Counted from the stretch's first letter, positions 4,152 through 42,805 are shown. The stretch is 64,000 nt of DNA from Thermoplasmata archaeon (GCA_028864975.1 JAGWLG010000006.1:1-64000), one strand, 5' to 3'. The notes: generated by a model not told the origin, from the letters alone. Numbers and translations: made by a program.

Positions 4152-4160
4152 GGCTCTGCG

Positions 4161-7182: not shown

Positions 7183-7200
7183 AGCTGGGAGGGGACATCC

Positions 7201-8086: not shown

Positions 8087-8105
8087 TCGGGCGGGGCCGT
8101 TCCAG

Positions 8106-8654
8106 ATGGCAAAGATCCGGATCGAGAACGTCGTCGCGTCAACTTCGCTCGGAGACGAACTCGACCTACAGGCCATCGCGCTCGCCTTGGACGGCGCGGA
8201 GTACGAGCCGGAACAGTTCCCAGGGCTCATCTACCGCCTGAAAGAGCCGAAGACGGCGATCCTGCTCTTCCGCAGTGGGAAGGTCGTGTGCACCGGGGCC
8301 AAGAGCATGGCCGAGGTGGAGGAGTCCATCCACAAGGTCGCTCAGCAGATCCGCAAGGCGGGCCAGAAGGTCAACACGCGGCCCAAGATCGAGGTCCAGA
8401 ACATCGTCGCTTCCTCCGACCTCGAGTCCGAGATCAACCTGAACGCCATCGCCGTGACCCTGGGGCTCGAGCGTGTCGAGTACGAGCCCGAGCAGTTCCC
8501 AGGGCTCGTCTGCCGCATCGACGAGCCGCGGGTCGTGGTCCTGCTCTTCGGCAGCGGCAAGCTCGTCTGTACAGGGGCCCGCAAGCCCTCGGACGTCGAA
8601 GTGGCGGTCCAGAAGATCACGAAGGAGCTCCAGGGCGCGGGTCTGCTCCGCTGA
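8106..8654 (+). CDS. tbp: TATA-box binding protein
   Basis: Two direct repeats 'IENVVAS...EYEPEQFPGLIYR' / 'VQNIVAS...EYEPEQFPGLVCR' and 'LLFxSGKxVCTGA'. Confidence 0.98.
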   Translation: MAKIRIENVVASTSLGDELDLQAIALALDGAEYEPEQFPGLIYRLKEPKTAILLFRSGKVVCTGAKSMAEVEESIHKVAQQIRKAGQKVNTRPKIEVQNIVASSDLESEINLNAIAVTLGLERVEYEPEQFPGLVCRIDEPRVVVLLFGSGKLVCTGARKPSDVEVAVQKITKELQGAGLLR

Positions 8655-8711
8655 ACCGGGGCCGGTCCTGAGCGACCGGGCTCGAGCACGGCAGACGGGG
8701 GCGTGAGAGCG

Positions 8712-9602
8712 ATGGCCGTCACGTTCGACCTTCCCATCGTGGACCACCATGCCCACCTTCGCCCCGGGGAGAGCGCGCTCCTCGCCGCTCGGAACTTCGC
8801 GAAGGCGGGCGGGTCCCACCTCTTCCTCGCCACCCAGAACTACCTCGCCCATGCCCCAAGGAGCCTTGAGGAGTACCGGAGGCAGTTCGAAACGACCGAG
8901 TCCATCGCCGCCCGGGTGCGCAAGGAGACGGGCATCGAGGTTCTCTCGGTCCTGGCCCCTTACCCGATCGACCTCGTCCACGTGGCCTCCGAGACCGGGC
9001 TCGTCGCTGCAGAACACCTGCAGCTCGATGCCCTCGAGCTTGCCGCGAAGGAAGTACGCGAAGGCCGGGCGGTGGCCCTGGGTGAGGTCGGACGTGCCCA
9101 CTTCCCTGTGGACCCCGAGGTCAAGCAAGCGCTCGACCGGGTCATGGGGACCGCGCTACGGATCGCCCACGAAACCGGATGTCCGGCCGTGCTCCACACC
9201 GAGGACCTCGATGAGCGGGGATACGCGGAGGTCTCGGAGATGACCCGGAAGAGCGGACTTCCCCCGGAACGCGCGATCAAGCACTACGCACGCACGGTGG
9301 TCCCCTCGGCCCAGCGGCACGGGGTCACCCCCTCCTTCCTGGCCAAGCGGGAGCTCGTCCGGGAGGTGGTGCGCGAGCCCGGACCGTGGTTCTTCGAGAC
9401 CGACTTCCTGGACGACCCGGCTCGACCTGGGGTCGCCCTCCCGCTCGAGACCGTGCCCCGGAGAGTGCGGCAGCTTCTCGGCTCGCCCGCTCTACCGCGG
9501 GGCGACGTCGTCGAAAAGCTCTCGATCCCGTTCGTCGAAGCCCCACGCCGGCTCTATGGGCTGGAACTGATGCGGAGGTCGCCGCTGACGATCGAAGTCT
9601 GA
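8712..9602 (+). CDS. TatD-like metal-dependent hydrolase (TIM barrel)
   Basis: DHHAH, GEVGRAHF, VLHTE, IKHY, FETDFLDDP. Confidence 0.85.
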   Translation: MAVTFDLPIVDHHAHLRPGESALLAARNFAKAGGSHLFLATQNYLAHAPRSLEEYRRQFETTESIAARVRKETGIEVLSVLAPYPIDLVHVASETGLVAAEHLQLDALELAAKEVREGRAVALGEVGRAHFPVDPEVKQALDRVMGTALRIAHETGCPAVLHTEDLDERGYAEVSEMTRKSGLPPERAIKHYARTVVPSAQRHGVTPSFLAKRELVREVVREPGPWFFETDFLDDPARPGVALPLETVPRRVRQLLGSPALPRGDVVEKLSIPFVEAPRRLYGLELMRRSPLTIEV

Positions 9603-9616
9603 GGGAGGGCGCTGAC

Positions 9617-10270
9617 GTGAAGGGTGAGCGGCAACGCGGGGTCCTCGTGGCCATCGAGGGCATCGATGGGACCGGGAAGAGCACGCTGTTGAACGGACTG
9701 GCGAGGGTCCTGCGCTCTCGAGGGTGGAGCGTCGGGCGGTGGAAGGAGCCCTCCAATTCGGTGCTCGGGAAGGCCGCGAGAGGCTACGGAGGAAAGGACC
9801 CCGGCCAGGCCGCCCTGCTCTTCACGCTCGACCGAGGTGGGGAATGGGCGAACCTGGAGGCCCTCCGCCGCGGCCATGATGTGGTGCTTTCGGACCGTTC
9901 CTACTTTTCCACCCTGGCCTACCAGGGGAGTGCGCTCAAGCCTCGGGAGCGGCGAACTTTGGAGCTCCTCCAACGTTCCGTGGCCCATGTCCCCGACCTG
10001 GTGCTCTGGCTCCAACTGGACGCCCGGGTGGCCCTGGAACGCGTGGGACAGCGAGGAGCTGCTCGCTCGCGGTGGGAGCGCTTGGAGGTCCTGGCGCGGA
10101 CGGCTCGAGCCTACGGAGGGTATGCCCGGCGCGAGCCGCGTCGGTTCGTGCGGCTGGACGCCCGGTTGCCCCCTGCCGAGGTTCGGGCCGCCGCCTTGGC
10201 CGCCGTAGAGCGGCGGCTGGGACCGCGCTCGAAAGCGGGCGCAGCCCGATCGCGGCGAGCGACCTTTTAG
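9617..10270 (+). CDS. tmk: Thymidylate kinase
   Basis: IEGIDGTGKST P-loop, KEPS, LFTLDR, SDRSYFSTLAYQ, PDLVLWL; GTG start after GGAGG. Confidence 0.92.
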   Translation: MKGERQRGVLVAIEGIDGTGKSTLLNGLARVLRSRGWSVGRWKEPSNSVLGKAARGYGGKDPGQAALLFTLDRGGEWANLEALRRGHDVVLSDRSYFSTLAYQGSALKPRERRTLELLQRSVAHVPDLVLWLQLDARVALERVGQRGAARSRWERLEVLARTARAYGGYARREPRRFVRLDARLPPAEVRAAALAAVERRLGPRSKAGAARSRRATF

Positions 10271-10303
10271 GGCGAGACGCTGCTCCCCCTCCTTCTCCAC
10301 GAC

Positions 10304-11467
10304 ATGACGGACGGGATCATTCTCCGCGAGGAGACTCTGGACGCCTCCTACCTCCCCCCTTCGCTGCCCCACCGTGAGAAGGAGCTCGCCCTGTTGCGTG
10401 AGCGGTTCTCCCGGTCGATGGATGCGGGCCAAGGGTGGAGCCAGCTCTTGACCGGGGGAATCGGCAGCGGGAAGACCGCCCTCTCCCGGGCGCTCGCCCA
10501 CGAGCTTGCCGCGCGCCGTCGCCCCAAGGACAAGGCCTCCGGTCCCGGGCTCAAGGAGATCTACGTCAACTGCTGGCGACGCAACAGCGACCGGGCGGTC
10601 GTCCTCGAGCTGCTGAACGCCGTGGACCGTCCGGTCCCGGACCGCGGGTTCTCGGTCTCGGAGATGATGGACACCTTCGAGAGGGGCTTGAGGGAGGTCC
10701 GGGGACCGACCCTCATTATCCTGGACGAGGTGAGCGTCCTGCTCAAGGGCGGAAGCAAGCTCATCTACATGCTGACCCGGGGCCGCGAGGTCGGTCTCGG
10801 ACCGCTCTCCCTGCTGCTCATCGCACCCCAGGACGTGCTCCCGTACCTCGACGCCGCCTCCCGCAGCGGGTTCGGGGTCACGCACCGGCTGCACCTCTCC
10901 AGGTACTCCCGGGAGGCGCTCGCGGACATCGTCCAGGCGAGGGCGGGATTGGCGCTCCGTCCGGGGACGCTGGGTCGGGAGGTCGCCGAACAGATCGCCC
11001 GGGTCGCGGAGGCGCAGGGCGATGCGCGGCTCGCCCTCGAGCTCCTTGCGGGCTCGGCTCGTCGGGCCGAGGAACAGGGCGCTCGCGAGGTCGGTGCCGA
11101 GGACGTCCGATGGGCCAAGGCCTCGCTCTACCCCACGATCACGGAGGAGAAGTTGGACGGGCTCCCCCCCTCCTCGCTCCTCGTGCTGCTCGCCCTCGCC
11201 CGGACCCTTCGGGCCCCCGGGTCGTGGGTCAAGATGGAGCGCGTGCGGAGGGCCTACGCCCTGGCCTCCGAGGAGTTCGGCATCAAGGCGGGCGGCAAGG
11301 TCACCTTCTGGCGGACGGTCAAGGCCCTCGAGATGGAAGGGCTCCTGGAGATGGAGGCCCCTCGTCCCGGAGCTCCCGGGCGCCTGACGCAGGACGAGAT
11401 CCCCGCCAGCATGCTGGAGCTGGTCCTGAACGAGCGCCTGGGACGTCCGTCCTCGGCCCAAAGTTAA
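10304..11467 (+). CDS. cdc6: Orc1/Cdc6 family replication initiation protein
   Basis: 'LDASYLPPSLPHREKE', Walker A GGIGSGKT, YVNC, Walker B IILDEV, 'GDARLALELL', C-terminal winged-helix-like region. Confidence 0.9.
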   Translation: MTDGIILREETLDASYLPPSLPHREKELALLRERFSRSMDAGQGWSQLLTGGIGSGKTALSRALAHELAARRRPKDKASGPGLKEIYVNCWRRNSDRAVVLELLNAVDRPVPDRGFSVSEMMDTFERGLREVRGPTLIILDEVSVLLKGGSKLIYMLTRGREVGLGPLSLLLIAPQDVLPYLDAASRSGFGVTHRLHLSRYSREALADIVQARAGLALRPGTLGREVAEQIARVAEAQGDARLALELLAGSARRAEEQGAREVGAEDVRWAKASLYPTITEEKLDGLPPSSLLVLLALARTLRAPGSWVKMERVRRAYALASEEFGIKAGGKVTFWRTVKALEMEGLLEMEAPRPGAPGRLTQDEIPASMLELVLNERLGRPSSAQS

Positions 11468-11493
11468 ATGCCGATGAACTCTGGCCACGCGGG

Positions 11494-13941
11494 ATGACCA
11501 CAGGGAGCCGACGCGGGTTCGCGACCCACTCGGGGTCGCACAGCAGCCACGCGCGCCGCACCGCCACTCCCGCCGCCGTCGCTCCGCCCGCACCTCCGCC
11601 TGCCCCCCCTCCTCCGGCCGAGACTTCCCCCCAGGAGCCCCTTCAGACCGCCCGGGAGCTCCGGGCAGAAGGGAAGTTCGAGGAGGCGCTCGCCCAGGTC
11701 GACCTGGCGCTCCGTTCCTCCCCCCACGACGCCGAGGCGCGAGAACAGCGTGGCCTCACCCTGCTGGACCTCCACCGGGCGAGCGAGGCCCTGAGCGAGC
11801 TCGACCAGGCCCTCGCGCTCCGATCCGACCTTCCGTCCGCCCACGCGGGACGCGGTGAAGCGCTGAGGGTGCTGGGGGACAAGGAGCGCTCGCTCTGGGC
11901 CTACACGAAGGCGCTCCAGCTCTCCCCCTCCTCCGACCCCTGGAGGAAGGCGCGACGAGAGACCGCGGCGGAGTTCCTGGGGGTCGAGCCGGGGACGGAC
12001 GCGCACGCGCTCGCGATGGAGGCGATGCGGCAAGGTCACCGGGCCCTGGCGGTCGACCTGTCGGATGAGGCACTGTCGACCGCCGACACGGACCCTGAGA
12101 GCTGGCGGGAGGACGCCCGCCATCTCCGGGAGGAGAAGGAATACGACGAGCTCCTGATGCGCGCTCGGGCCCGCCTCTCCCGCTTTTCGGGCGACCCGGT
12201 CGCCCAGGCCTACCTGGGCTACGCCCTCTACGGCAAGGAGGACTGGAAGGGCTGCCTGGAACCTCTCGCGGGCGCGGAGAGAGAGCCGAAGGAAGGTCGT
12301 GAAGCGACCCTACTGCGGGCACGAGCGCTCTATCGTCTGAAACGCGAAGAGGAGGCCACGCCCTTGCTGGACCGACTGCTCGCAGCCGCTCCGGACGATG
12401 CGGAGCTCCTGAAGATCGCGCTCGCTTCCCCTTGGGCACGACAGCGTCCGTTCCCGGCCCTTCGCGGGGCGCACCGTCTCGTCCAGAAGGCCCCGAAAGA
12501 CCCCGAGGCCTGGAGGACGCTCGTGGTCGCCTCCTTCCGTCTGGGCCATTACGCCGAGACCGCCGAGGCCGCCGGGAAGGTGAGGGCCCTCGACCCGAAG
12601 CAGATCGGGGTCGCGCTCCCCCAGGCCATCGCGTTGGGAAGGCTGGGCCACCCCGCCGAGGCCGCTCAGCTCCTGGAGGAGTACCTCAAGGAGGACCCGG
12701 GGAACCCCGAGGCTTGGAGGGAGCTCGGACTGCTCCGCCACCGCGAAGGGAAGCTCGGTGATGCCGAGGCCGCCCTGCGGAAGGCGGTCGAGCTCGACCC
12801 GGACCACGTCGCCGCCAGGATGGCGCTCGCGACGTTGCTCTCCAAGGGCTCGAAGGACGCCGAGGCCGAGACGAACTTCCTCGCCGCCACGAGGATCGAC
12901 CCGAAGAACGTCGAATCCTTCTACAACCTGGGCGTCGTCCGGCAGAAGCTCGGGAAGGACGCCCCCGCGGCGGATGCGTTCCGCGCGGCGCTCGCGATCG
13001 ACCGTACCCACGTGGATTCGGCGGCGAACCTCGCCGTTGTCCTCGCCAAAGGCAAGCGGTACGACGAGGCGGCGAAGGAACTGGAGGCGACGCTCGCCTT
13101 CCGTCCCGACGCGAAGGACCTCAACTTCAACCTGGGGCAGATCTACCTGCTCCAAGGTCGTGCGGACGGGGCCTATCTCCAGTTCAAGCGGGCCCACCGT
13201 CTGGACCCCTTCGACTACGAGAGCTGGAACCACCGGGGCGCCGCCCTTTCGAAGACCCACCGCATCGACGAGCGGAGCGCCGAGGGATGGATGGCGCTCG
13301 GCCGGGGGTTCCTCCGGCGGCAGGGCTACTCCGAAGCGCACGAGTGCTTCCGCCGGGCCCTCGAGCTCGACCCCAAGAACGAGGAGGCCAAGCGCCTGCG
13401 GGCCGAGAGCCTCTCCTCGGTCTACGGCGTTCCCCCGAACGCGGCGGCAGAGTGGCTCTCGACCTCCCGGATGCTGCTCGAGATGCACCAGTTCGCGGAT
13501 GCCATGGACGCCCTCTCGGTGGTGCTCATGCTCGATCCCGAGAACGCTTCCGCTCGGGTGCTCACGGGGAGAGCGCTGCTATCCCTGGGTAAGGCGCAGG
13601 TCGCGCTCCATCAGGCGGACCTCGCCCTGCGCGTGGAGAAGGAGAGCGCGGCCGCCTGGGCGCTGAAGGGCGAGGCGCTCCTCCAGCTCGAACGATACTC
13701 GGAGGCCCTCGATTGCTTCGACTGGCTGGTCGAGCATGCGCCGAAGGACGCTGCCGCCTTCACCTTCCGAGGCGTCGCGCTCGCGGCCCTGGGACGCGGC
13801 CGCGAGGCGGTCAAGGCGTTCGACGAAGCCCTGGAGGTGGACCCCAACTTCCGCGAAGCGTGGCATCACAAGGGCGTGGAGCTCGAGAAAGAGGGCCACT
13901 ACGAGAAGGCCGCGGAGGCCTTCGCCAACGGGTTCCGGTAG
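11494..13941 (+). CDS. Large tetratricopeptide repeat protein
   Basis: More than 12 TPR-like units (e.g. EAWRELGLLRHREGKLGDAEAALRKAVELDP) after a Pro/Ala-rich N-terminus; start set at ATG 11494, just after the cdc6 stop. Confidence 0.85.
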   Translation: MTTGSRRGFATHSGSHSSHARRTATPAAVAPPAPPPAPPPPAETSPQEPLQTARELRAEGKFEEALAQVDLALRSSPHDAEAREQRGLTLLDLHRASEALSELDQALALRSDLPSAHAGRGEALRVLGDKERSLWAYTKALQLSPSSDPWRKARRETAAEFLGVEPGTDAHALAMEAMRQGHRALAVDLSDEALSTADTDPESWREDARHLREEKEYDELLMRARARLSRFSGDPVAQAYLGYALYGKEDWKGCLEPLAGAEREPKEGREATLLRARALYRLKREEEATPLLDRLLAAAPDDAELLKIALASPWARQRPFPALRGAHRLVQKAPKDPEAWRTLVVASFRLGHYAETAEAAGKVRALDPKQIGVALPQAIALGRLGHPAEAAQLLEEYLKEDPGNPEAWRELGLLRHREGKLGDAEAALRKAVELDPDHVAARMALATLLSKGSKDAEAETNFLAATRIDPKNVESFYNLGVVRQKLGKDAPAADAFRAALAIDRTHVDSAANLAVVLAKGKRYDEAAKELEATLAFRPDAKDLNFNLGQIYLLQGRADGAYLQFKRAHRLDPFDYESWNHRGAALSKTHRIDERSAEGWMALGRGFLRRQGYSEAHECFRRALELDPKNEEAKRLRAESLSSVYGVPPNAAAEWLSTSRMLLEMHQFADAMDALSVVLMLDPENASARVLTGRALLSLGKAQVALHQADLALRVEKESAAAWALKGEALLQLERYSEALDCFDWLVEHAPKDAAAFTFRGVALAALGRGREAVKAFDEALEVDPNFREAWHHKGVELEKEGHYEKAAEAFANGFR

Positions 13942-29893: not shown

Positions 29894-30030
29894 AGCATCC
29901 CCCGAAGGGGGCCGCTCGTGGCCGTGGTATAAAAGGGCCTCGGCGCGGCTCCCGGAACGCTCAAGCTTGAGGTAGAAGGAGCGTGCTCGTCCTCCCCGCG
30001 ATGCGACGGGGTGCGGGTCCTAGGCGCGGA

Positions 30031-30960
30031 ATGGGACCCGAGGCGGCGGAGGCGCTCCTCCAGCAGCTTCGACCGAAGGGGATCTTCGGCACTTCCCGTG
30101 GGGTGTCCCTCGTGGGCGACGCGCTCGAAACCCTCCGCACCCTTCCGCCGAACACCTTCGACCTGGTCGTGACCTCCCCTCCGTACGACGGCCAGCCGCG
30201 GTACGGGGATGGGGAGCGGTACGACCGCGACTGGTACGAAGGGTACTTCCTCGACGTGACCCGAGAGGTCCATCGACTGCTCCGACCTCGGGGGAGCTTC
30301 GTCCTCAACTACCGCTCGAAGCGGGGGGGCTCCGAGCGCGGGACCCTGCAGTACGAGCTGGTGTTCGCCTTGCGCCGCCAGGGCTTTCTCTTCTGCGAGG
30401 ACTTCGTCTGGGGGAAGCCCTCCCCTCCCCCGGGTCGGTTCCGTCGGTTCTTGAAGGACGCCGTCGAGTACTGCTACCAGTTCGCGAAGACCGAGGACTG
30501 GCAGTTCTTTCCCGAGCAGTGCCTCCTCCCCGCGAGGTGGGATGCAAAGGACCGCGCCCGAAGGAGGGCCCTGCCTCAGAACTACGTGCGCGTGTCCGAG
30601 CCGTCGGGGCAGGGAAGGCGAAGGGCGCTCGCCGGCCCGGACCTGGTCCGGCCGTCGACGCTGCTGCTGTTCGAGCCCGAGTTCGCGAAGAACCCTACGG
30701 AGCATCCGGCACGGTTCCCGGTGGAGCTTCCGGAGTTCTTCGTGCGCCTCCTCACCCGCCCGGGGGACCTCGTGCTCGACCCGTTCGCGGGAACCGGGAC
30801 GACGGCGGTGGCCGCGGAGCGATGGGGCCGCCGATGGGTGCTTTGCGAGGCGGATGCGCGCTACGCGAGGGGGCTACCTGCCCGCCTGGAGACGCCTCGG
30901 CTCCGACCTCCCCTGGCGACCGCGGGGAGAAGAGCTGGCCCCAGGACCCGCCACCCCTAG
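30031..30960 (+). CDS. Beta-class DNA methyltransferase, probably N4-cytosine
   Basis: Motif IV TSPPY near the N-terminus, 'HPARFP', motif I 'VLDPFAGTGTT' near the C-terminus. Confidence 0.85.
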   Translation: MGPEAAEALLQQLRPKGIFGTSRGVSLVGDALETLRTLPPNTFDLVVTSPPYDGQPRYGDGERYDRDWYEGYFLDVTREVHRLLRPRGSFVLNYRSKRGGSERGTLQYELVFALRRQGFLFCEDFVWGKPSPPPGRFRRFLKDAVEYCYQFAKTEDWQFFPEQCLLPARWDAKDRARRRALPQNYVRVSEPSGQGRRRALAGPDLVRPSTLLLFEPEFAKNPTEHPARFPVELPEFFVRLLTRPGDLVLDPFAGTGTTAVAAERWGRRWVLCEADARYARGLPARLETPRLRPPLATAGRRAGPRTRHP

Positions 30961-31568
30961 CCCCGGGCCAGGAGCAAGTGGACGGCGGAGAGGAAGTTGG
31001 GAGCCAGCAGGTCGGCGGCTTCGTTCGCCTTCTCCCTCTCCTGAGGGTAGTTCGACTCGGCCCCGGGCTCGGGGACATAGACGGTGGTCATTCCGAGCCG
31101 AGCGCCGGCTTCCACGTCGAGGATCCGGTCACCGATGATGGCGCACCCCCCCAGGTCCAGGTGGTGGTCGCGGGCGGCCTGTTCGAAGAGGGCGGTCCCA
31201 GGCTTGCGGCAGGCGCATCCCTCGGAAGGGGCGTGGGGGCAGTAGTAGAAGGCGTCGACCCGCGTGCCGACCGCTCCGAGCAGCTCCTGGATCCGAGCGT
31301 GGATGGCCTCGACAGCCTCCCTGGTGTAGAGCCCCCGAGAGATCCCGGACTGGTTCGTGACCACGAGGACCAGGAACCCGTGGGAACGGAGGAGCACGAC
31401 CCCCTCGCGCACCCCGCGGTGCAGTTCCACCTTCTCGGGCCCCGTCAGGTAGTGGGTGTCGACGTTGAGGGTCCCGTCCCGGTCGACGAAGACGGCCCGT
31501 CGGAGCCGCGACGGGGCCGAGGGGGCCCGGAACTCCGAGCCCACCTCCCGCTCAGGTGCTGATGACAC
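30957..31568 (-). CDS. HAD-IIIA phosphatase (GmhB / histidinol-phosphate phosphatase family)
   Basis: DRDGTL, VTNQSG, YCPH...CACRKP, IGDRILD. Confidence 0.9.
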   Translation of the reverse strand: MSSAPEREVGSEFRAPSAPSRLRRAVFVDRDGTLNVDTHYLTGPEKVELHRGVREGVVLLRSHGFLVLVVTNQSGISRGLYTREAVEAIHARIQELLGAVGTRVDAFYYCPHAPSEGCACRKPGTALFEQAARDHHLDLGGCAIIGDRILDVEAGARLGMTTVYVPEPGAESNYPQEREKANEAADLLAPNFLSAVHLLLARG

Positions 31569-32283
31569 GGGCGATGCGGAAGTTGCCCTTCTCCAAGAGG
31601 AGCGAGTAGAGGTTCGACGAGTGGTTGGTCGAACGCATCTTCACCACCCGGATGCGCCGTTGGATCGTCTCCTCGTTGACCTTCGCCATCATCAGGTGGA
31701 CGATGCCGTCCGAAAGGTAGTCCTCGCCGTTCGGGCCGTAGCTCTCCACGTCGCGGCGTACCTCCGAGATGAGCAGGCTGGTCACGCCCAGGTCGCGGAT
31801 CCACTCGAAGAAATGGAAGAGGTCGTTGCGCGGGTTCTGGAAGTCCGAAAGGGTCTCCAGCACCGGGAGCGAGTCCAGGATCAGGAGCTCGTACCCCTGG
31901 CTGTCCTTCATGTTCCGGGAGTACATCTTGAGGACCTCGATCCAGGACTTGTTCCCGAGGACGTTCAGGTTCTTCCGGATGAGACCGATGTCGACGATCG
32001 AGAGCTTGTCGCCGACCGCGTCGAGCTTCATCCCGACGCTCTCCATGTTCTGGATCAAGCTCTCGCGCGACTGCTCCATCGTGATGTAGAGCCCCTTCTT
32101 GCCCTCCTTCAGGGCGTTCTCGTAGGCCATGTGGTAGGCCACGGTGGACTTCATCGTACCGGGTTCACCGGCGAGGAGCACGACGTGCCCCGAGGGGATC
32201 CCTCCCTCCATCTTCTCGTCAAGTCCTTCGACGTAGGTCCGGATGCGCGGGATCTTCGGTCCAGCAGCGGGTCCTGGGCTCAT
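31552..32283 (-). CDS. RAD55/KaiC-family single-domain ATPase
   Basis: GLDEKMEGGIP, GEPGTMKST, YITMEQ, LILDSL, DGIVHL, VVKMR. Confidence 0.9.
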   Translation of the reverse strand: MSPGPAAGPKIPRIRTYVEGLDEKMEGGIPSGHVVLLAGEPGTMKSTVAYHMAYENALKEGKKGLYITMEQSRESLIQNMESVGMKLDAVGDKLSIVDIGLIRKNLNVLGNKSWIEVLKMYSRNMKDSQGYELLILDSLPVLETLSDFQNPRNDLFHFFEWIRDLGVTSLLISEVRRDVESYGPNGEDYLSDGIVHLMMAKVNEETIQRRIRVVKMRSTNHSSNLYSLLLEKGNFRIARVIST

Positions 32284-34211: not shown

Positions 34212-35801
34212 ATGGCCGGACCTCCACCACCTCCCCCTCCAGCCTCCCCTGCTTCGGGCCCGGGAGCTCCTGCGGCCATGCAGGGTTCCTGGGGGGCCTC
34301 CCCTACCACCCCCCAGCGACCGCGCCACGTCCTCGTGCTGGACATCTCGAAGAGCATGCTGGCCCCCCTCCCCGACCCGAGCGACCCCACCAAGATCCGC
34401 AGGAAGATCGAGGTGGCGAGGGCTGCGACGTACCGCATCTTCGAGGCGGTCCAGTCGCAAGGCGCGGTCTTCGGGCTGGTCATCTTCAACAATGTCGCCC
34501 ACGTGGCCATCCCGCTAACCGAGATCCGCCCCGAGATCCGGCCCGCGCTCGACAACCTGGTCGCGCTCCTTCCCCCCAAGGGCCGTTCCGCCATCTGGGA
34601 CGCGCTCGCCCTGGGGGCCGACCTGCTACGCGTCGAAGGGGGTTCCACGGTCGGCAACCTCGTGCTCGTCACGGACGGGTGGGACAACATGTCCCAGCGC
34701 TTCGGGGCCCCCGGTGTCGACCTCCCTCCCCCTCCTCCGCCTGGGGCTCCTCCGGGAACCTATCCCCCTCCTCGGTCCGACATCCTGGCCTACCTGCTCA
34801 CCCAGGGCAGCCGGCTCGGGCTACGGATCATCGGCATCGGCAGCGGGGTCGAACGCGACAAGGGGGTCGACTCGCAGCGGATGCAGGCTTTCGCCTCCAT
34901 CTACCAACAGCGTTCGCAGCAGTGGCGCCTCCCCTGCACTGTGAGCTACGAGGAAGTGACGACGAGCGAGGAGCTCTTCTCCCGCATGGTCCAGGCCTTT
35001 GTCGACGTCCCGTTCGAGGACGCCCTGGCGGTGGAGAACCTCCATCCGGACGAGCTTGCCGAGGCGGCCGCCTCCGCGGCGCGGGCCCTCCGCGACACCG
35101 AGGGCAAGCGGAGCGTCGTGGGACACCTCGCCTCGGGTCCTGCGGGGGCCGCTCGGGGCGGGACGCGAACTGCCGAGGGCACGTCGAGCCCCGGCATGGA
35201 GGTCGACATCCTGAGCCCCCAGGTCGGTCCGTCGGCCGTGAACCTGCGGGACCGCTACGGCCCGCTGGGGGAGGTCGCAGAGGCCTACATGGCCCGAGAC
35301 TGGGCCCGGGCGCAGGCGATCCTCTACCAGAAGGGGGGACTCATCGCCCCCGTCACGAGATTCTACTGGCAGGCCCGCGTCTACTACGCGCAGGGGGAAA
35401 AGACCGAGGCAGGACGCTACCTTGCTCAAGCCTGGTCCGAGGCCGAGACGCTCGCCCCCCAGGAGCGAGGGCGGGTCGTGCGCCGCCTCGCGCTCCTGCA
35501 GGCGAAGGTCGCAGGGGACAAGGAGACCGAGAGCCTGGTGACCTTCTACGACGCCGCCGAGACGAAGGCGAGGTCCCTCGGCGGGGGGCTGGACAAGAAG
35601 CTCGAGCAGATGTTCGACAAGATCCTCTCGCTACGGGGGACCTATGCGGGCGTCAAGGGGGGAGGGGCCGCAGCGCACGAGGCTCTGGTCGAGGAGATCT
35701 TTGGGCTCCTGCAGGATGCCCGGCTCGCGAACACCGGACGCGAGCCCTCGGTCGATGCTTTCCTCGACTTTGTGGAGATCGCCTTGGCGGAGATGAGGTA
35801 G
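34212..35801 (+). CDS. vWA (MIDAS) domain protein with helical TPR-like C-terminus
   Basis: VLVLDISKS (DxSxS), SAIWDAL, LVLVTDG, IIGIG; Pro-rich N-terminus and insert; C-terminal paired helices. Confidence 0.8.
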   Translation: MAGPPPPPPPASPASGPGAPAAMQGSWGASPTTPQRPRHVLVLDISKSMLAPLPDPSDPTKIRRKIEVARAATYRIFEAVQSQGAVFGLVIFNNVAHVAIPLTEIRPEIRPALDNLVALLPPKGRSAIWDALALGADLLRVEGGSTVGNLVLVTDGWDNMSQRFGAPGVDLPPPPPPGAPPGTYPPPRSDILAYLLTQGSRLGLRIIGIGSGVERDKGVDSQRMQAFASIYQQRSQQWRLPCTVSYEEVTTSEELFSRMVQAFVDVPFEDALAVENLHPDELAEAAASAARALRDTEGKRSVVGHLASGPAGAARGGTRTAEGTSSPGMEVDILSPQVGPSAVNLRDRYGPLGEVAEAYMARDWARAQAILYQKGGLIAPVTRFYWQARVYYAQGEKTEAGRYLAQAWSEAETLAPQERGRVVRRLALLQAKVAGDKETESLVTFYDAAETKARSLGGGLDKKLEQMFDKILSLRGTYAGVKGGGAAAHEALVEEIFGLLQDARLANTGREPSVDAFLDFVEIALAEMR

Positions 35802-35856
35802 CCTTGGGAGTCCGAAAGCATAAGACGGAGGGTCGTCATACGAAGGAGAGTTCGGA

Positions 35857-37206
35857 ATGAGCCCGCCCACACCCGCGAAGACCGCATCGAAGAAGAGGGC
35901 CCCGGCCGAACCTTCCGCCACCGCACCCGCCGTTCCGCAGGCTCCTGTCGTGCCTTCCACCCCGGTCGCGCCGTCGGCGGAGGTGATCGCGCCCGTGGTG
36001 AAGCGGGTCGCTCCTGGCTCGATCCCCGCTCCCGCGCGCAAGGTGGCCCTGGCGCCTCCTACCCCGCGCCCGCTCCCACCCCCTCCCGAGCCCGAGCCGC
36101 CCGCCGCGCCGGCGCTCGCCGCGAAGATCGCGGTGGTGGGGATTCCGGCCTCCGGTAAGACCACCTACTTCCGCTACCTCTCCGGCCACTTCGGCCTGAA
36201 CCTGCCGCTGGTCTACGTGCCGAGCCGCTCCGGCACCGTCGTCCCGCTCTTCGGGGACATCGGGAACGAAGTGGTCATGGAAGAGACGACGTACGAGTCG
36301 GACCCGAACCACCCCGACGCCGCGATGGACACGACGACCCGTCTCTACGTGAACCGCCCGATGGAGGACCCGACGCGGCTTTTCGTCGAGCTGGCCCAAG
36401 GACAGGAAGAGCAGGGGATCCTTACGAAGTACCCCCTGCCGACGAAGTACAACCAGTTCGTCGAGATGAAGCTCAACTTCCGCTTCGGGGTCACGGGGAA
36501 CATCGGGGGAGCGAAGCCGATGGTGCTCCGCACCGTCGACGAGGCGGGAGGGATCATCTCGGACTACTTCACCTACGACCGGCTCTGGATCGGCCACCCT
36601 CAGGAGGAGGTCCCTATGGAGAAGTGCCGGGTCATCCCGCGCTTCGACACGTGGAAGCCGGACCGGCAGGAGCTCTGGCGACGGGGGCTGACCTTGATGG
36701 GAAGGTTCACCGTGGACGCCGACGGGATCATCCTGCTCCTGACGCCCCAGCTCGGTTCGCTGCGCGACAGCGCGCAGCAGGTGAACCTGGCCCGCGGGGT
36801 CTTCCGCTACGCCCGTCAGCGAGGGATCCCGGTGGTCATCGCGATCTCGAAGGCGGACCTTCTGAAGGAGTTCTACCTCGAGGTCGAGCAGGTCCTCACC
36901 AACCGGGGGTACCTCTCCCCCTTCGACGCAAACCGTTTCCTGACCGAGCGGGACGGGAGCGGGCTCGGCAGCATCCTGGCAGCCCAGGAGGGCCGAGGGT
37001 TCTCGACGAAGCAGGACGCCTTCCTGGTCGCCTCGGCGATCTCCACGGGGGAAGGCCGACCCCTGCTCTACGGCGACACGGCGGACGTGGACCTCAACAA
37101 CGGGGCCACCGCCGGGGTCCCGGTCATGGTCAACACCACCCTGCCGCTGGCCAGGATCTGCGAACGCGTCCTGACCCAACGAGGAGAGGCCCCCGCGGGC
37201 GCCTGA
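35857..37206 (+). CDS. Stand-alone TRAFAC-like GTPase domain protein
   Basis: G1 GIPASGKT (36139-36162), G2-like PLPT, G3 DEAG (36538-36549), G4 SKAD (36847-36858), G5 SA; SD GGAG upstream. Confidence 0.75.
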   Translation: MSPPTPAKTASKKRAPAEPSATAPAVPQAPVVPSTPVAPSAEVIAPVVKRVAPGSIPAPARKVALAPPTPRPLPPPPEPEPPAAPALAAKIAVVGIPASGKTTYFRYLSGHFGLNLPLVYVPSRSGTVVPLFGDIGNEVVMEETTYESDPNHPDAAMDTTTRLYVNRPMEDPTRLFVELAQGQEEQGILTKYPLPTKYNQFVEMKLNFRFGVTGNIGGAKPMVLRTVDEAGGIISDYFTYDRLWIGHPQEEVPMEKCRVIPRFDTWKPDRQELWRRGLTLMGRFTVDADGIILLLTPQLGSLRDSAQQVNLARGVFRYARQRGIPVVIAISKADLLKEFYLEVEQVLTNRGYLSPFDANRFLTERDGSGLGSILAAQEGRGFSTKQDAFLVASAISTGEGRPLLYGDTADVDLNNGATAGVPVMVNTTLPLARICERVLTQRGEAPAGA

Positions 37207-37213
37207 ACGGGTC

Positions 37214-39775
37214 ATGTCCACGGCGGCGCCGAACCCTGTGGGAGAGGCGCGCCCTGGTGCCCCCCCCGCCTCCCGTACCCTCCCGCCCGGCGTCCCTCCG
37301 TCCGGCAAGGACCGCAGCCTGGTGTCCGTGGTCTGGTGCCGTCAGGTGGACAACGAGGCGGAGAGCCCAGGGTACACGACGGTCCCGACGGAGTTCCCCG
37401 GGCGAAAAGAGACCCTGGACCTGGTGCGGGTCGTGGGCAATCTCGCGATCAACGCAGCTGACACGCACGACTACTGGGACCCGGACCCGTCGACCAAGCT
37501 CGCCTACTACAACAACCTCTTCCTCTATCCCGCCCACGGCGGACGCTACCTCTGCCTGGGTCGGATGTTCCTCTCGACCGAGGACCGCCCGCGATTGGGC
37601 ATGAAGACCCTGGTGCTGGACACGTCGAGCCTTCTCGCCTCGGAGAACCTGGGGCAGGCCCTTCGCCGTTGGTACGCCTCGATGGGGAATCCCGGCCGCG
37701 TCGCCCCGCCGTCCGGGAAGGTCGACCCGCAGCTCGTGGAAGTGCTCTCGGAGGGCTTCACCTACCTGCGAGGGGACCCGACCACTCCGCTCCTGGGGTT
37801 CGTCTCGGACATCTTCGAGAGCGCCGTCGAGGCCGTGTTCTCGCTCCTCGAGCGGGTGCCGATGTCCGTGGCCGGCCGCTCCGGGATCCTGATCTTCCCG
37901 TACTTCCTCCCCGTGGGCCGCGTCAACTTCCCCGAGTTCGCGGAGAAGTTCCCGCTGACCCTGGGTCTCGCGCGGATCCCCCGCAACGAGGCGGGAGGCG
38001 ACCGGCATCAGAAGCGGCTCGCGGGATGGGCCGGCCAACCTGTTCGCATGATCGATCTGACACAGGGGGTCCCCTCGGACCCTGCAGGAGCCTTGACCCC
38101 TCCCGCGCCCGTCGCCTGGTGGTGCAGCGGAGAGAAGAGCGAGCTCGCTTCCGACCTTCGAAAGGGGGTGGACGCGGTCGAGCTCCCTCGACTCCGAGAG
38201 CCGGCGAAGAGCGACGAGGAGACCTCCGGAAGTGCGCACAGGAGAGAGCTCGCACGCCTCGGAGAGGTGATGGTCACTCTCGCGGGGGCGCTGGAGCGTC
38301 CTGCGGAGGAGCGAAGGGAGCTGGATGCCGAGACCTCCTCCAAGGTCGGAGCGTATCTCACGGCCATCGGCCCGGTCGCTCCCGTACCCGAGACCGGTGT
38401 GCTCTCGTCGAGCTTCGCCCCTGCGGCCAAGGCCTCGGGGGCCCTCGCCTCGGGTCCCGTCGCGGGATCCACCGAGACCGCCGAACCTCCCTGGCGACGG
38501 ACCCCGCGGCTCCGATCGGAGCGTTCCGAGGTGGTGCCCGGCCCTCGGGTCGGCCCGGGGGGCGCCGTACCTCCCGGGGTCGAAAGCCCGCCCGCCGCGG
38601 CCCCCGTCGCTCCGGTCGGGACCAGCCCCGCCGCCGGAAGCGCCCTGGTGTCGCAGGCGTCCGCCGCACCCCCGCAGTTCGCCGACGTGCTCCGGCTCTC
38701 CCCCACCCTGCTCGAAGAGCTTCGCGCGTACATCGACGGTCGCATCGGAGAGGTCAAGACCCGCACCGGAGATCTCGATCCCGACGTCGTCGGTAGGCTC
38801 GAGCGGGACCTGGAGCGTCGGCTCGAGGCGAAGGCCAACCTCCTGGTCTCGCCCGAGGCCCTGGAGGCTCGTGTCGTCGAGGTCCTCTCCCGTCGACCCC
38901 CGCCCCCTCCACCGGACCCTCGCTCCCTCCTGACCGACGAAGTGAAGGCCTCGCTGGCTGACGTGGTGAACTCGCTCGTCGCGCAGCGGCTCACCGAATC
39001 GTCGGCCCAGAAGGTCCCGAAAGCGCCTCCCGAAGTGACCTTGGCCAAGGTGGACGACCGCGTGCTGGAGCTCCTTTCAGGCCAGACGGGGGAGAGGCGG
39101 GCGGCCGTGCTGATGGAACAGAAGATCCAGCGCTACGTCTCGGCCTCCGTCGAGGCCGACCGGAGGTCCACCGACGATCGTCTCGACAAGCTACTCAAGG
39201 AGCTGCAGAGCCGGGCCAAGGCGCAGACCGAGCTGGAGGCCACCATCCGCGCGGAAGTGCGTTTCCTCGATGAAAAGCTCCAGACGCTGATGGGTCGGAT
39301 GATCCCGCTGCTCAAACGGACCTGGCTCAAGATCGACGAGCTCGACAAGCGACCCGCGGGGAGCGGCGGAGCGTCGGAGGCGAAGATGAAGCGCCTGCGG
39401 GACGAGCTTTGGTCCGAAATGAAGCGCCTGGAGCTCGACCTGTCGGAAAGGACGCGCCTTATCCTCGACCGGGTGGAGGGGAACATCCAGAACCAGGGCC
39501 GGCTCTGGCTGACCCTCGTGACCCAGCTCTCGAGCCTCACGGAGCAGCGCCGGGAGCTGGAACGGATCGTTCAGGAGTCCAAGGAGGACATCGAGAGCTC
39601 CTCTTCGCCGGAGGCTTCCCCCGAGGTCGAGGTCGAGGGGGGAGAGACCTCTACGAAGGGGGCCCGGGAGGAGGAACCCCCCCGCAAGGGCCCCCGCGGG
39701 CTCCCAGCGTCCGAATCACGGCACTCGACACGAGCGACACGAACCGACGGCCCGTCCGCCGGTACAGAGGGTTAA
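37214..39775 (+). CDS. Large hypothetical protein: globular N-domain, Pro/Ala linker, long coiled coil
   Basis: Starts 7 nt after the GTPase stop; aromatic-rich N-domain, heptad-rich region about 38700-39600, acidic tail. Confidence 0.75.
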   Translation: MSTAAPNPVGEARPGAPPASRTLPPGVPPSGKDRSLVSVVWCRQVDNEAESPGYTTVPTEFPGRKETLDLVRVVGNLAINAADTHDYWDPDPSTKLAYYNNLFLYPAHGGRYLCLGRMFLSTEDRPRLGMKTLVLDTSSLLASENLGQALRRWYASMGNPGRVAPPSGKVDPQLVEVLSEGFTYLRGDPTTPLLGFVSDIFESAVEAVFSLLERVPMSVAGRSGILIFPYFLPVGRVNFPEFAEKFPLTLGLARIPRNEAGGDRHQKRLAGWAGQPVRMIDLTQGVPSDPAGALTPPAPVAWWCSGEKSELASDLRKGVDAVELPRLREPAKSDEETSGSAHRRELARLGEVMVTLAGALERPAEERRELDAETSSKVGAYLTAIGPVAPVPETGVLSSSFAPAAKASGALASGPVAGSTETAEPPWRRTPRLRSERSEVVPGPRVGPGGAVPPGVESPPAAAPVAPVGTSPAAGSALVSQASAAPPQFADVLRLSPTLLEELRAYIDGRIGEVKTRTGDLDPDVVGRLERDLERRLEAKANLLVSPEALEARVVEVLSRRPPPPPPDPRSLLTDEVKASLADVVNSLVAQRLTESSAQKVPKAPPEVTLAKVDDRVLELLSGQTGERRAAVLMEQKIQRYVSASVEADRRSTDDRLDKLLKELQSRAKAQTELEATIRAEVRFLDEKLQTLMGRMIPLLKRTWLKIDELDKRPAGSGGASEAKMKRLRDELWSEMKRLELDLSERTRLILDRVEGNIQNQGRLWLTLVTQLSSLTEQRRELERIVQESKEDIESSSSPEASPEVEVEGGETSTKGAREEEPPRKGPRGLPASESRHSTRATRTDGPSAGTEG

Positions 39776-39799: not shown

Positions 39800-42700
39800 G
39801 TGTCCACGTCAGGGGGCACGCCCCCCGGCAGGTCCGCCCCCAGCGTTAGGGTCGGCCTAGTCCTTCTCGGGATGCTCGCGCTCGTCCTGGGTGGCTCGAT
39901 GGTCCTCCCGGTTCAGGGCACCCACGCTCTCGCCGCGGTCCCCTCCAACACGTCAGGCATGGGCGCGGCGAGCACGAACCCGATGCCTTTGCAGCATGGC
40001 GCCGCCGCCTCCGCCTCCCCGTTGCCTCTTCTTACACGTTCGACGATCGACCCGGTCCTTCCGTACCTCAGCCCCCGACCGCACGTTCCAGCTCCCGGGG
40101 GACCAGGACTTCCGAACCTCACGGGGAACATCACGGGATTCACCCTGGCGCCCCTCTCTTTCTCGCTCACGGGGAATACGGGCCAGCGGTTCAACGCGAC
40201 GATCGGAGCGATGCCGACGGGGGGCAATTCCTCGACCTACGTCTTCGTCCTGCTGGGCGAGACGGTCTCCACGAACTCCACCGCCCTGGTGGGGTACATC
40301 GAAGGTACGTTCGGCCCATTCACCGCCGCGCTTCCCCTCTACCTTGTGCTGAACGGGACCACGCTCTCGACCTGTGGGTTCGGCGGACAGATCATGATGC
40401 CGGGGCCGACGGTCCACACCTTCGCGATGGAGCAGGCCCACCAGGACTGGTGGAACTTCCTCTTGGACGGGAGCCTCATCACGGGAGGGAGCGGGCTCGG
40501 CGGGGGCGGCTTCTGCTCGGGGACCGGGAACGGGACCGCCGACCTCTACGCGGCGAGCACCAGCCCGTTCGTCCTCCCGCTGTTCGCATGGCTCGTCTCC
40601 GCGAACGTCTCGGGCCTGCCCACGTTCCAGATCCCCATCGTCAGCGAGTACCGCACGGGGTCCACGTGGTCCCAGTCGACGGCCGGGACCGTGATCCTGG
40701 ATTCCGTCCTGGGGGTCGAGGGGTACCTGCAGGACTCCACGATCCCCCCGGACTCGGTCGTGGGCGGACCTGCCGTTCCGGTGCAGACCCCGGCCACGTT
40801 CCTGTGGAACACGGGCCCCTTGCCCGCGTTGACGCTCGACCAGAAGGGACTCCCCGGGGAGCTCACTTCAGGAGAGAGCGCCTCGTTCACGGTTTGGATC
40901 AACTCGAGCTCGACCCATAGGGGAGTGAGCAGCGCGAACCTCGCGACGAACTCCTCGCTCGGCGGAGCCTTCGTGCCGAACGGGGGGGGAACCGTTGCGG
41001 GCGAGGACCAACTCGTGTTCACCGCCCCGAATACGATCCAACACGGGAACGACACCATCACCCTCCTCGCCACCGGCACCGGATATGTCGGAGTGAGGTC
41101 GACCTATGCCCTCGGGATCAACGCCGCGCTCCTGGTCCTCCACGCCCGTCCACCTTCTTCCCCCGTCCCGTCCGGGTCGACCACGTCCATCCCGTTCTGG
41201 GTCAACACGTCGCTGGGCGTGCCTGCCGTCCCGACGCAGTTGGTCCCTTCGGTCAAGGGTGGCGGAACCGTGGTGCTTGCTCCGGAGGGAGGGACGACCC
41301 CGGGACTCTACTTCGTGGACTTCACCGCCCCGCTCTTCTCGCGTCCCACCAATTCGACAGTGTTCCTCACCGCCTCTGGCCCCGGGCTCATCACGCAGTC
41401 CGGGTCGGCGACCGTTCCGGTGGGGCTTCGGCCCCTGCTCGTGCTGGGCCCTCCCCCGGGTAACGTGTGGGTCGGAAGCACCGTCTCCTTCGGCCTGTCG
41501 CTCTCGACCCCGGCCGGGAACCTCCCTGTCGCAGGGGGGAGCCTGTGGAACGCAACGGTGCTCGGGGATGACGGGGGAGCCCCGATCCCCTTCGCAGACA
41601 CGGTAGCGGCCGCAGGGGCGACCGCCGTCCTGCGGGTGTCGATGGACCCGACCTACCTCGGTCCGGTTTGGTTCTGGATGAACGTTTCAGCCCCGGGTTT
41701 CGTCCTGTCCGGGGCGACCTGGTGGGAGAACTCGACGGGCAACGCCACGCTCCAGCTCTCCGGACTGCCGGCCGACGTTACCGAAGGACAATCGGTGACG
41801 CTGACGCTGGAGGTGCTCGGCCTCCAGGGTTACCCTCTGGACGGGGCGACCGTCGAGTGGAGCTCTTCCTCGGGAGGGTTCGGTCCGAACGGTGACGCGA
41901 GCGCGCTCGGGTACACCGATTCCACCGGGAGGACGACGGTTCAGTTCGACCCCGCTAGTGTCAGCAACGACACCCCCCTGCTGGTGAGCGCCTCGGTGAC
42001 GTATCCCTACTATGCCCCCGCCTCCGTTACAGGGACCTCCACCGACACGGTCGCGACCGGCCTTCTTGGGACGGCGGACCACGGTATCGCGCTGATCGAC
42101 CTCATCCTCGCTCTTCTGCTCCTCTCGCTCCTTCTCGCCCTCTACGCGGAGTCTAGGTCGCGACAGTCTCGGCGCTCCCCCGGGGCCGGCGGCGTGCGGG
42201 GCGCGGGGTCGGGGTCCTGGGCCCCTCGCGACGCAGGGGAGGGCGAAGGCCGGGCACCTTGGCCGGGGGCCATCACAGCCCGCTACGAAGAGGAAGAACT
42301 AGGCGCTTCCGACCATCCTCCAGAGAGAGAAGCGCGCCCGCCCCAAGTGCCCCCGGTGCGAGGGCAACTTCCACCTCCCGCTTCGGACGCCTCGGGTCCC
42401 GCGGGGAAAGAGGGGATGGATGACGCCGACGACGAACCTCTGCCCCCTGAAACCTCTGCAGCCCCCAGCCCACTCGCGTCGACGGCCCCCGTACCTCCCG
42501 CTGACGAAGGCTCGAGGACCGCTCGGGACGAGCCTTCGGCCGCCTCAGCGCCGAGTGGGTCGATGTCGGGCGCGGCGGAGGTCAAGCCTCAGCCTGTCTC
42601 GGAGCCTGCCGGGGCGCCAGCGCCCGCGCTCCGTCCAAACCTCGCTGACCCACCGTCCGGGGGTGAGGTCGAACCATCGTCCCCAAGCACCCCGCCGGGG

Positions 42701-42805
42701 GGGACCCCAGGGAAGGATGCGCGAGCTGGGAGACAGCGCGATGAACGGAACCCCCCGCCGCGCCGCCAGACGCGCAAGCGAACGGGTACCGACCTTGTGG
42801 AGTAG
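39800..42805 (+). CDS. Large membrane-anchored surface protein with Pro-rich cytoplasmic tail
   Basis: Signal peptide, Thr/Ser/Gly beta-rich Ig-like region with many NxS/T sequons, TM helix (IALIDLILALLLLSLLLALYA), disordered tail. Confidence 0.75.
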   Translation: MSTSGGTPPGRSAPSVRVGLVLLGMLALVLGGSMVLPVQGTHALAAVPSNTSGMGAASTNPMPLQHGAAASASPLPLLTRSTIDPVLPYLSPRPHVPAPGGPGLPNLTGNITGFTLAPLSFSLTGNTGQRFNATIGAMPTGGNSSTYVFVLLGETVSTNSTALVGYIEGTFGPFTAALPLYLVLNGTTLSTCGFGGQIMMPGPTVHTFAMEQAHQDWWNFLLDGSLITGGSGLGGGGFCSGTGNGTADLYAASTSPFVLPLFAWLVSANVSGLPTFQIPIVSEYRTGSTWSQSTAGTVILDSVLGVEGYLQDSTIPPDSVVGGPAVPVQTPATFLWNTGPLPALTLDQKGLPGELTSGESASFTVWINSSSTHRGVSSANLATNSSLGGAFVPNGGGTVAGEDQLVFTAPNTIQHGNDTITLLATGTGYVGVRSTYALGINAALLVLHARPPSSPVPSGSTTSIPFWVNTSLGVPAVPTQLVPSVKGGGTVVLAPEGGTTPGLYFVDFTAPLFSRPTNSTVFLTASGPGLITQSGSATVPVGLRPLLVLGPPPGNVWVGSTVSFGLSLSTPAGNLPVAGGSLWNATVLGDDGGAPIPFADTVAAAGATAVLRVSMDPTYLGPVWFWMNVSAPGFVLSGATWWENSTGNATLQLSGLPADVTEGQSVTLTLEVLGLQGYPLDGATVEWSSSSGGFGPNGDASALGYTDSTGRTTVQFDPASVSNDTPLLVSASVTYPYYAPASVTGTSTDTVATGLLGTADHGIALIDLILALLLLSLLLALYAESRSRQSRRSPGAGGVRGAGSGSWAPRDAGEGEGRAPWPGAITARYEEEELGASDHPPEREARPPQVPPVRGQLPPPASDASGPAGKEGMDDADDEPLPPETSAAPSPLASTAPVPPADEGSRTARDEPSAASAPSGSMSGAAEVKPQPVSEPAGAPAPALRPNLADPPSGGEVEPSSPSTPPGGTPGKDARAGRQRDERNPPPRRQTRKRTGTDLVE

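Follow-up and report, generated by a model that had tools for sequence, protein, structure and literature searches.

Here, we describe a three-gene module on the plus strand of a 64,000-nucleotide (nt) stretch of DNA from a Thermoplasmata archaeon (GCA_028864975.1 JAGWLG010000006.1:1-64000; hereafter the window, meaning the whole stretch that was analyzed), which encodes a vWA protein, an orphan protein with a small-GTPase fold, and a large protein with a GAP1-like head and a helical tail. The trio is real and conserved, and predicted structures and language-model features suggest that it represents a stripped-down, domesticated form of the DO-GTPase/GAP1/vWA class, which is itself a prediction, as is the function of the trio. 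It looks like a strongly diverged module of that class that appears to have become fixed as single-copy cellular machinery. On balance, we lean towards reading the trio as an operon-like GTP-gated switch and scaffold, a very diverged DO-GTPase/GAP1 offshoot that would work as a cellular device, probably in membrane or cell-surface organization, and not as mobile defense.

The class in question comprises the GAP1-N2-type DO-GTPase, or "GTPase-centric," systems (Kaur, Burroughs, Iyer and Aravind 2020, eLife 9:e52696, PMC7159879), in which the GAP1 gene lies directly downstream of its GTPase and vWA proteins are recurrent partners; these systems are defined by a mobile gene neighborhood, and their role in conflict is, for the class as a whole, predicted only (PMC7159879). 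They overlap (PMC7159879; PMC2875224) with the vWA/FtsZl1 operons carrying a "diverged GTPase," which have been read as membrane-remodeling systems (Makarova and Koonin 2010, Biol Direct 5:33, PMC2875224). A widespread but only predicted class has therefore been given two incompatible readings in print, membrane remodeling in 2010 and biological conflict in 2020.

The three open reading frames (ORFs) span 34212-35801 (gene 1, 529 amino acids [aa]), 35857-37206 (gene 2, 449 aa), and 37214-39775 (gene 3, 853 aa), and are co-oriented with gaps of 55 and 7 nt, just as a first-pass annotation of the sequence had described them. The window has a G+C content of 65-71% and many shadow ORFs, among which these three are taken as the coding frames because their G+C content at third codon positions is 0.85-0.90. 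NCBIfam gave no meaningful match. The 853 aa reported for the third product hold from the first ATG, but one public gene call (P0125) begins at Val37, which gives 817 aa if the GTG at 37322 is the start. Similarly, the Pro-rich N-termini ascribed to all three proteins are present in the window, but they are specific to its genus, with short or basic N-termini in other genera. Genomes of the window's genus (G000-G003) are 2.5-3.6 Mb in size versus ~1.3-2.4 Mb in other genera, and their vWA proteins and GTPases carry longer low-complexity Pro/Ala extensions.

Gene 2 opens with a low-complexity Pro/Ala/Lys segment (aa 1-84) that precedes a conserved G-domain core with inserts (aa 85-449, 365 aa). 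The motifs G1 (GIPASGKT, 36139-36162), G3 (DEAGG, 36538-36552), G4 (SKAD, 36847-36858), and G5 (SAIS, 37033-37044) are invariant in 24 orthologues and follow the order of a TRAFAC GTPase, with motif positions taken from alignment columns and strand order from the predicted model. The complete G1-G5 set of the first-pass annotation stands for these motifs, whereas G2, judging by the sequence alone, would be the Thr in the candidate switch I motif EETTYE (36280-36297). The long inserts and the lack of translation-factor domains were described correctly: the core aligns to small GTPases over just ~150-185 of its 365 residues, so the inserts are real, and a Pfam search of gene 2 returned sub-threshold P-loop matches and no translation-factor domain. 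Between helix 1 and the strand with Walker B lies a beta-rich, highly conserved insert (36190-36530, aa ~112-225) that carries EETTYE and QGILTKYPLPTKYNQFVEMK; it received no fold assignment and is modeled at low confidence in parts. The protein has the guanine-specificity motif SKxD, and no Gln follows its DxxG. The 24-sequence alignment contains ~120 invariant columns, and a profile built from it and run against 1.84 billion representative proteins recovered only the family's own cluster and fragments thereof; a PDB profile search yielded P-loop matches only, at E values of at least 0.02. Nothing about the locus is more striking than this pairing of extreme internal conservation with the lack of any detectable relative elsewhere. 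The first-pass annotation had also left room for a known housekeeping GTPase such as GPN, SRP, or FeoB, but no such family was matched above its cut-off by hidden Markov model (HMM); ATP_bind_1 aligned over 23 residues (E 0.0024, below cut-off), all matches were of P-loop length, and the GPN tripeptide is absent from the sequence.

Kinesins top the Foldseek list for the GTPase model, with weak matches (template modeling [TM] score 0.22-0.27, root mean square deviation 11-13) that may stem from the beta-rich insert; no kinesin was among the top 50 of an exhaustive VIA structural search, and we rejected the relationship. Two long proteins with weak multi-stretch matches to the GTPase profile, P0256 and P0258, are beta-sandwich or low-complexity proteins and were set aside as spurious. 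The GTPase gene is split over two or three frames in four genomes (G018:C5:956729-957861, G348:C10:185969-187068, G424:C5:723556-724646, and G416:C19:7258-8011), reflecting either frameshift errors in few-contig assemblies or real pseudogenes, and an apparent TAG inside the match in two same-genus genomes proved to be the gene's own stop codon.

Gene 3 encodes a head (aa 37-345, 37322-38248; delimited by predicted model, fold searches, and alignment), a Pro/Ala/Ser-rich linker of variable length and poor conservation (aa 346-500, 38249-38713), and a helical, coiled-coil-like tail (aa 501-800, 38714-39613; assigned from composition and a crude periodicity measure). Pfam found no match in gene 3. 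The head was modeled with a predicted local distance difference test (pLDDT) score of 83 and a predicted TM score of 0.87 as a longin/roadblock-like lobe followed by an alpha/beta lobe and helices; it bears the motifs VVWCRQVDNEAESPGY and STEDRPRLGMKT, invariant in the orthologue alignment, and its longin lobe carries invariant arginines. Foldseek placed DENND1B-Rab35 first for the head (probability 1.00, E 1e-4), then DENND1A, C9orf72-SMCR8, DENND10, and FLCN-FNIP, with TagF weak at rank 36 (E 0.2). The predicted two-lobed architecture, a longin lobe and then an alpha/beta lobe with helices, is that of the eukaryotic longin-DENN regulators (DENND1B-Rab35, PDB 3tw8; FLCN-FNIP; C9orf72-SMCR8) and of TagF of the type VI secretion system, and the gene for the head adjoins one for a protein of small-GTPase fold. 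We take the resemblance between TagF and DENN proteins to be on record in the literature. In MglB, DENN, folliculin, and C9orf72-SMCR8, a fold of this longin and DENN type works on small GTPases as a GTPase-activating protein (GAP), a guanine nucleotide exchange factor (GEF), or a platform. The tail is Pro- and Gly-poor, with 34% E/R/K/Q, and shows 3.5-residue (heptad-like) hydrophobic periodicity at about aa 645-700 and 729-800 by a crude measure that is not a coiled-coil predictor; identity across genera is 28-47% over aa 640-800. A PDB sequence search found nothing for the tail, and the shorter relatives of the head that were found are contig-end fragments of its own family without Pfam annotation.

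Fold, language-model features, and gene order, not sequence, provide the leads that connect genes 2 and 3 to the DO-GTPase/GAP1 pair. In a shape search of the ESM Atlas with the head model, GAP1-N1/N2(+M) clusters made up seven of the ten matches listed (the other three lacked a common Pfam family, one of them being a Thermoplasmatota cluster), with TM scores by query of 0.54-0.60 over 222-249 aligned residues and predicted models on both sides. GAP1-N families also led by language-model features and when the Atlas's own model of the head was used, where TagF_N stood at TM 0.47. As far as predicted models can be compared with one another, the head has the N-terminal fold that GAP1 proteins share. 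By language-model features, the GTPase fell closest to its own cluster (0.96) and then to DO-GTPase2 and DO-GTPase1 clusters (0.94, 190-197 of 256 shared features); the DO-GTPase2 HMM matched faintly in 6 of the 24 orthologues (best E 0.088), and hhalign aligned the GTPase alignment to 11 archaeal DO-GTPase2 sequences with a probability of 58% (E 9.8e-5). Gene 2 has the TRAFAC core of a DO-GTPase (Walker A, Walker B, and an [NT]KxD-type motif), and gene 3 sits directly downstream of it, as GAP1 genes do, across a 7-nt gap. A conserved Walker B glutamate has been described in DO-GTPases, in a text that gives no position for it (PMC7159879); the Walker B of gene 2 reads D-E-A-G-G, with Glu at +1, and the archaeal DO-GTPases examined read DxxGE or DTxGxD, with +4 variable. 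Because each of the two genes points to its cognate member and their order agrees, we regard them as a probable diverged DO-GTPase/GAP1 pair.

Like the GAP1-N2-type DO-GTPase systems, the trio combines a TRAFAC GTPase bearing [ST]KxD, a following gene with a predicted GAP1-N(+M) fold of ~300 residues, a MIDAS (metal ion-dependent adhesion site) vWA protein in the same operon, and a coiled-coil element, with a predicted function in both cases. Unlike them, it lacks effectors as well as any tubulin, Hsp70, or kinase theme, and its coiled coil would be fused to the GAP1-like head, not to a tubulin; the FtsZ-like-1 tubulin-domain protein of the vWA/FtsZl1 operon is likewise missing, with no Pfam match to tubulin/FtsZ in the trio proteins or the next gene (39800-42805). 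Pfam found no GAP1-C, FNIII, GASH, EAD, or effector domain in the trio, in line with the earlier remark that no effector was visible. The low-complexity N-terminus of gene 2 has no Cys motifs and hence no zinc ribbons, whereas the archaeal DO-GTPase2 proteins examined have two CxxC pairs; no paired second GTPase exists, with one copy in the genome. The kinship put forward in the first-pass annotation is thus upheld by fold, language-model features, and gene order, while typical components are missing and no sequence match was significant: among the Pfam profiles proposed as a check, only vWA scored above cut-off.

Two operons from elsewhere in the Thermoplasmatota provide a comparison. In another family of the same archaeal class, locus L048 (G280:C1:588900-603500, minus strand, ~4279-13076) has a five-gene operon, conserved in 11 of the 12 loci examined (L047-L058), that encodes an Hsp70-vWA fusion (683 aa), a zinc-ribbon protein (1007 aa), a 437-aa DO-GTPase2 that carries two zinc ribbons, a GrpE-like protein (284 aa), and an Hsp70 without substrate-binding domain (534 aa), with a second DO-GTPase2-like gene nearby at 774-2345; the operon fits a published Hsp70/GrpE theme (PMC7159879). 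Like the trio, this conserved operon pairs a vWA domain with a diverged GTPase; unlike in the trio, the GTPase matches DO-GTPase2 (E 1.5e-9) and has two zinc ribbons, the vWA domain is fused to Hsp70, and no GAP1-like head was recognized, with hhalign finding nothing between our head alignment and the 1007-aa and 284-aa proteins. A specific kinship between the window's vWA protein and the Hsp70-fused vWA was considered and dropped, as no specific similarity was seen. The second operon, at locus L015 (G224:C1:1116000-1133000, minus strand, 2960-12088) in a 1.94-Mb single-contig Thermoplasmata genome, has five genes for a 620-aa protein, a 559-aa DO-GTPase (PF19993 E 8.7e-12), a 556-aa protein with a weak GAP1-N2 match, a 475-aa protein, and a second, 798-aa DO-GTPase. 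In the window's own genome, a search with PF20014 (GAP1-M) found nothing.

The same structural comparisons bear on whether the trio could instead be an MglA/MglB-type module in its own right, pairing a Ras-like GTPase and a longin/roadblock regulator for polarity or positioning, whose likeness to GAP1 and DO-GTPase would reflect shared ancient folds. We consider this quite improbable, since the predicted head is two-lobed with ~300 residues and not a ~120-aa roadblock, no roadblock family appeared among the ten Atlas matches listed, the nearest feature neighbors of the GTPase are DO-GTPases and not MglA, and Pfam matched no Ras, MglA, or Roadblock family. Compared with MglA-MglB, the trio has a GTPase of double the length that carries inserts totaling ~180 residues and reads DEAGG in place of DxxGQ, a regulator with a second lobe and an extension of ~500 residues, and a vWA partner.

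Evolutionary behavior supports a fixed cellular module. The first-pass annotation took co-occurrence elsewhere as essential to a three-gene system, and the three genes indeed stand side by side in a constant order, one copy each, in 23 of the 24 genomes sampled from the GTDB family of the window, against 0 of 16 genomes sampled in other families within the order and class. The GTPase occurs in 124 of 144 family genomes, spanning all 7 genera (122 of 142 without two unpublished genomes, G338 and G368, on which no other claim rests), and in 0 of 6 genomes of two sister families; orthologue-bearing records are labeled Thermoplasmata archaeon or Candidatus Lutacidiplasmatales archaeon. The junction of the GTPase gene and gene 3 varies across genera from a 43-nt overlap to a 7-nt gap. 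At nine loci from six other genera, the trio lies in a conserved housekeeping setting, with ribosomal protein S19e, a PDCD5-like double-stranded DNA-binding protein, and eIF6 upstream and a cytidylyltransferase-like gene, DUF5611, an M50 peptidase, and a methyltransferase downstream. In the window's genus, the S19e/eIF6/M50 flanks are on other contigs, and the trio has therefore moved as a unit, being surrounded in the window by QueC, DUF92, a methylase, HAD, KaiC-like, and NUDIX proteins, a radical-SAM enzyme, and UbiD. Identity between the window's genome and genome G006 is 65% for the GTPase core, 60% for S19e, 54% for eIF6, 53% for the M50 peptidase, about 50% for the gene 3 head, and 47% for the vWA protein; the GTPase is more conserved than eIF6 or S19e.

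Within a single genus, the GTPase is missing from twenty genomes. Searches of five of these with good assemblies found eIF6 but neither the vWA protein nor the head protein, and three of the five retain intact flanks, with S19e, the PDCD5-like gene, and eIF6 followed by an HpcH-type aldolase at the trio's site and then the cytidylyltransferase, DUF5611, and M50. Because all three genes are missing together at an intact flanking locus, gain or loss affects the trio as one block, and some lineages can dispense with it. One of the three genomes also has an IS605-type OrfB/TnpB gene (Cas12f-like TNB domain; L073 6193-7920, plus strand, G341:C6) beside the aldolase, the two lying exactly between eIF6 and the cytidylyltransferase, where other genomes carry the trio.

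These patterns can be set against the view that the trio is a genuine GTPase-centric conflict or defense system, in which the GTPase and GAP1-like protein would form a threshold switch, the vWA protein would be a sensor or adaptor, and the effector would either lie elsewhere or be the helical tail. The resemblance of the components to DO-GTPase and GAP1, the recurrence of vWA partners in published systems (PMC7159879), the block-wise presence or absence, the TnpB gene at the empty site of one trio-less genome, and the canonical DO-GTPase2 operons in other Thermoplasmatota families (PF19993 is above cut-off elsewhere in 25 of 301 genomes) all speak for it. However, GTPase-centric conflict systems are mobile and patchy and combine GASH or FNIII domains with variable effectors, none of which Pfam finds in the trio, whereas the trio is a single copy at one fixed locus among S19e, eIF6, and M50, inherited vertically through the 7 genera of one archaeal family, with a GTPase conserved above the translation genes around it. 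PADLOC models matched none of four proteins (the trio and the product of 39800-42805). In this family, the trio does not have the "mobile gene neighborhood" that defines the class, and the conflict role of the class is itself a prediction. We therefore judge defense to be unlikely and a cellular role likelier, given the fixed locus, single copy, housekeeping-level constraint, lack of effectors, and lack of PADLOC matches; among the roles that the first-pass annotation had offered, a GTP-gated scaffold suits this evolutionary behavior better than defense does.

The first gene completes the module. It matches Pfam VWA_2 (E 6.3e-8, 33.6 bits against a cut-off of 27, residues 40-156), and its vWA domain (~aa 38-270) contains a Pro-rich insert. 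We assigned vWA membership from a PF13519 or PF00092 match above cut-off together with the MIDAS motifs (DxSxS followed further along by a Thr/Ser and an Asp), and gene 1 has both: DISKS (aa 44-48, 34341-34355), SAIWD (34587-34601), and TDGWDN (34671-34688) are unchanged in an alignment of 10 orthologues from ten loci spanning genera. The intact MIDAS vWA of the first-pass annotation is thereby borne out, but its TPR-like tail found no support, TPR_6 appearing only at E 0.99 in the Pfam search. In place of a TPR, gene 1 ends in a conserved C-terminal domain (~aa 340-529, ~190 residues) whose terminal LAEMR is invariant and whose fold has no assignment; a PDB sequence search gave generic vWA matches only.

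A MIDAS vWA protein next to a nucleotide hydrolase also recalls MoxR-vWA pairs such as CoxD-CoxE and RavA-ViaA. By analogy with them, the trio could serve as a chaperone, made of an NTPase and a MIDAS vWA adaptor, in the assembly of a metallo-enzyme or another complex, and the intact MIDAS site, together with the genes for a molybdenum hydroxylase large subunit, XdhC, and MobA ~2-6 kb upstream in other genera, would suit such a role. Yet these molybdenum-enzyme genes are set apart from the trio by three translation-related genes, lie mostly on the opposite strand, are absent from the window's neighborhood, and keep their position in genomes that lack the trio; the NTPase is, furthermore, a GTPase-fold protein and not a MoxR AAA+. 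An assembly chaperone thus seems highly improbable to us.

Returning to the switch and scaffold that we favor, we propose that gene 2 acts as a guanine-nucleotide switch on a small-GTPase fold with large lineage-specific inserts. Because no Gln follows its DxxG, its catalytic residue would probably be supplied by a partner. Gene 3 would bind the switch through its two-lobed longin and DENN/TagF-like head, with the invariant arginines of the longin lobe as candidate arginine fingers; at the level of sequence, the missing Gln and the invariant arginines would fit GAP action in trans. The long helical tail may oligomerize or tether, and the MIDAS site of gene 1 may capture an acidic ligand and so join a further partner to the complex. 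In this family, the GTPase and head pair would be an offshoot of a DO-GTPase/GAP1 pair that is now single-copy, vertically inherited, and strongly constrained.

Several observations weigh against this interpretation. The kinship on which it draws rests on predicted structures and language-model features, which are leads, not proof, and profile searches failed to reproduce it: the DO-GTPase HMMs (PF19975 and PF19993) gave no match at E up to 1 for the window protein, and a six-frame search with PF19993 misses gene 2; the GAP1 HMMs (PF20012, N1; PF20013, N2; PF20014, M; PF20052, C) found nothing at E up to 10 in the window protein or 26 orthologues, and PF20013 was above cut-off in 0 of 301 genomes. 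Aligned by hhalign to the archaeal GAP1-N2-like protein of L015, the head gave nothing, and the GTPase alignment matched that locus's DO-GTPase at the P-loop only. Confidence in the model of the GTPase is no more than moderate (pLDDT 68). Modeling of the GTPase core with the head, a check that had been suggested for all three proteins, gave weak support, with a score of 0.47 versus 0.00 for the best control, runs agreeing in at least 60% of contacts, and a partner pLDDT of at least 72; in calibration, 58 of 80 solved complexes attained the mark for this score, as did 2 of 110 mismatched pairs, but only 7 of the 80 solved complexes, along with both passing mismatches, did so at 0.60 or under. 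Strong conservation is by itself compatible with an immune or surveillance role, ~14% of family genomes, near-complete ones included, do without the trio, and the cellular process that we name for it is a guess.

If our interpretation is right, the trio represents a stripped-down, three-gene version of the class under housekeeping-level constraint, a minimal system for biochemistry, which argues that at least some members do cellular and not immune work. The predicted longin and DENN/TagF-like head suggests a concrete mechanism, namely GAP or GEF action on the neighboring GTPase, and a possible deep link to eukaryotic GTPase regulators; in the literature searched, we did not find such a fold stated for GAP1-type heads. 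A bolder and rather doubtful extension is that GAP1 proteins, including the one in the trio, are prokaryotic homologues of the eukaryotic longin-DENN regulators and that the trio is a GTPase-driven machine organizing the membrane or cell surface, built from a switch, a DENN-like regulator bearing a tether, and a vWA adaptor. Were it true, the trio would be core cell biology of one family of uncultured soil Thermoplasmata and a non-Asgard archaeal counterpart of small-GTPase membrane-identity systems.

Downstream of the trio, the gene at 39800-42805 (plus strand) encodes a surface protein of 1001 aa that is rich in Ser, Thr, and Gly and has a membrane anchor or signal at its N-terminus, a C-terminal hydrophobic segment, a long Pro-rich tail, and a weak Ig-like match (Big_1, E 0.0024, below cut-off). 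It follows the trio in the window's genus only and evolves fast, with 41-48% identity within the genus versus 85-87% for the vWA protein, and it lies outside the conserved module. Upstream, two further genes stand among metabolic genes: a stand-alone N6/N4 DNA methylase (29983-30960, plus strand, E 1.5e-35), for which no restriction partner is seen, and a KaiC-like ATPase with one domain (31552-32283, minus strand, E 5.8e-45).

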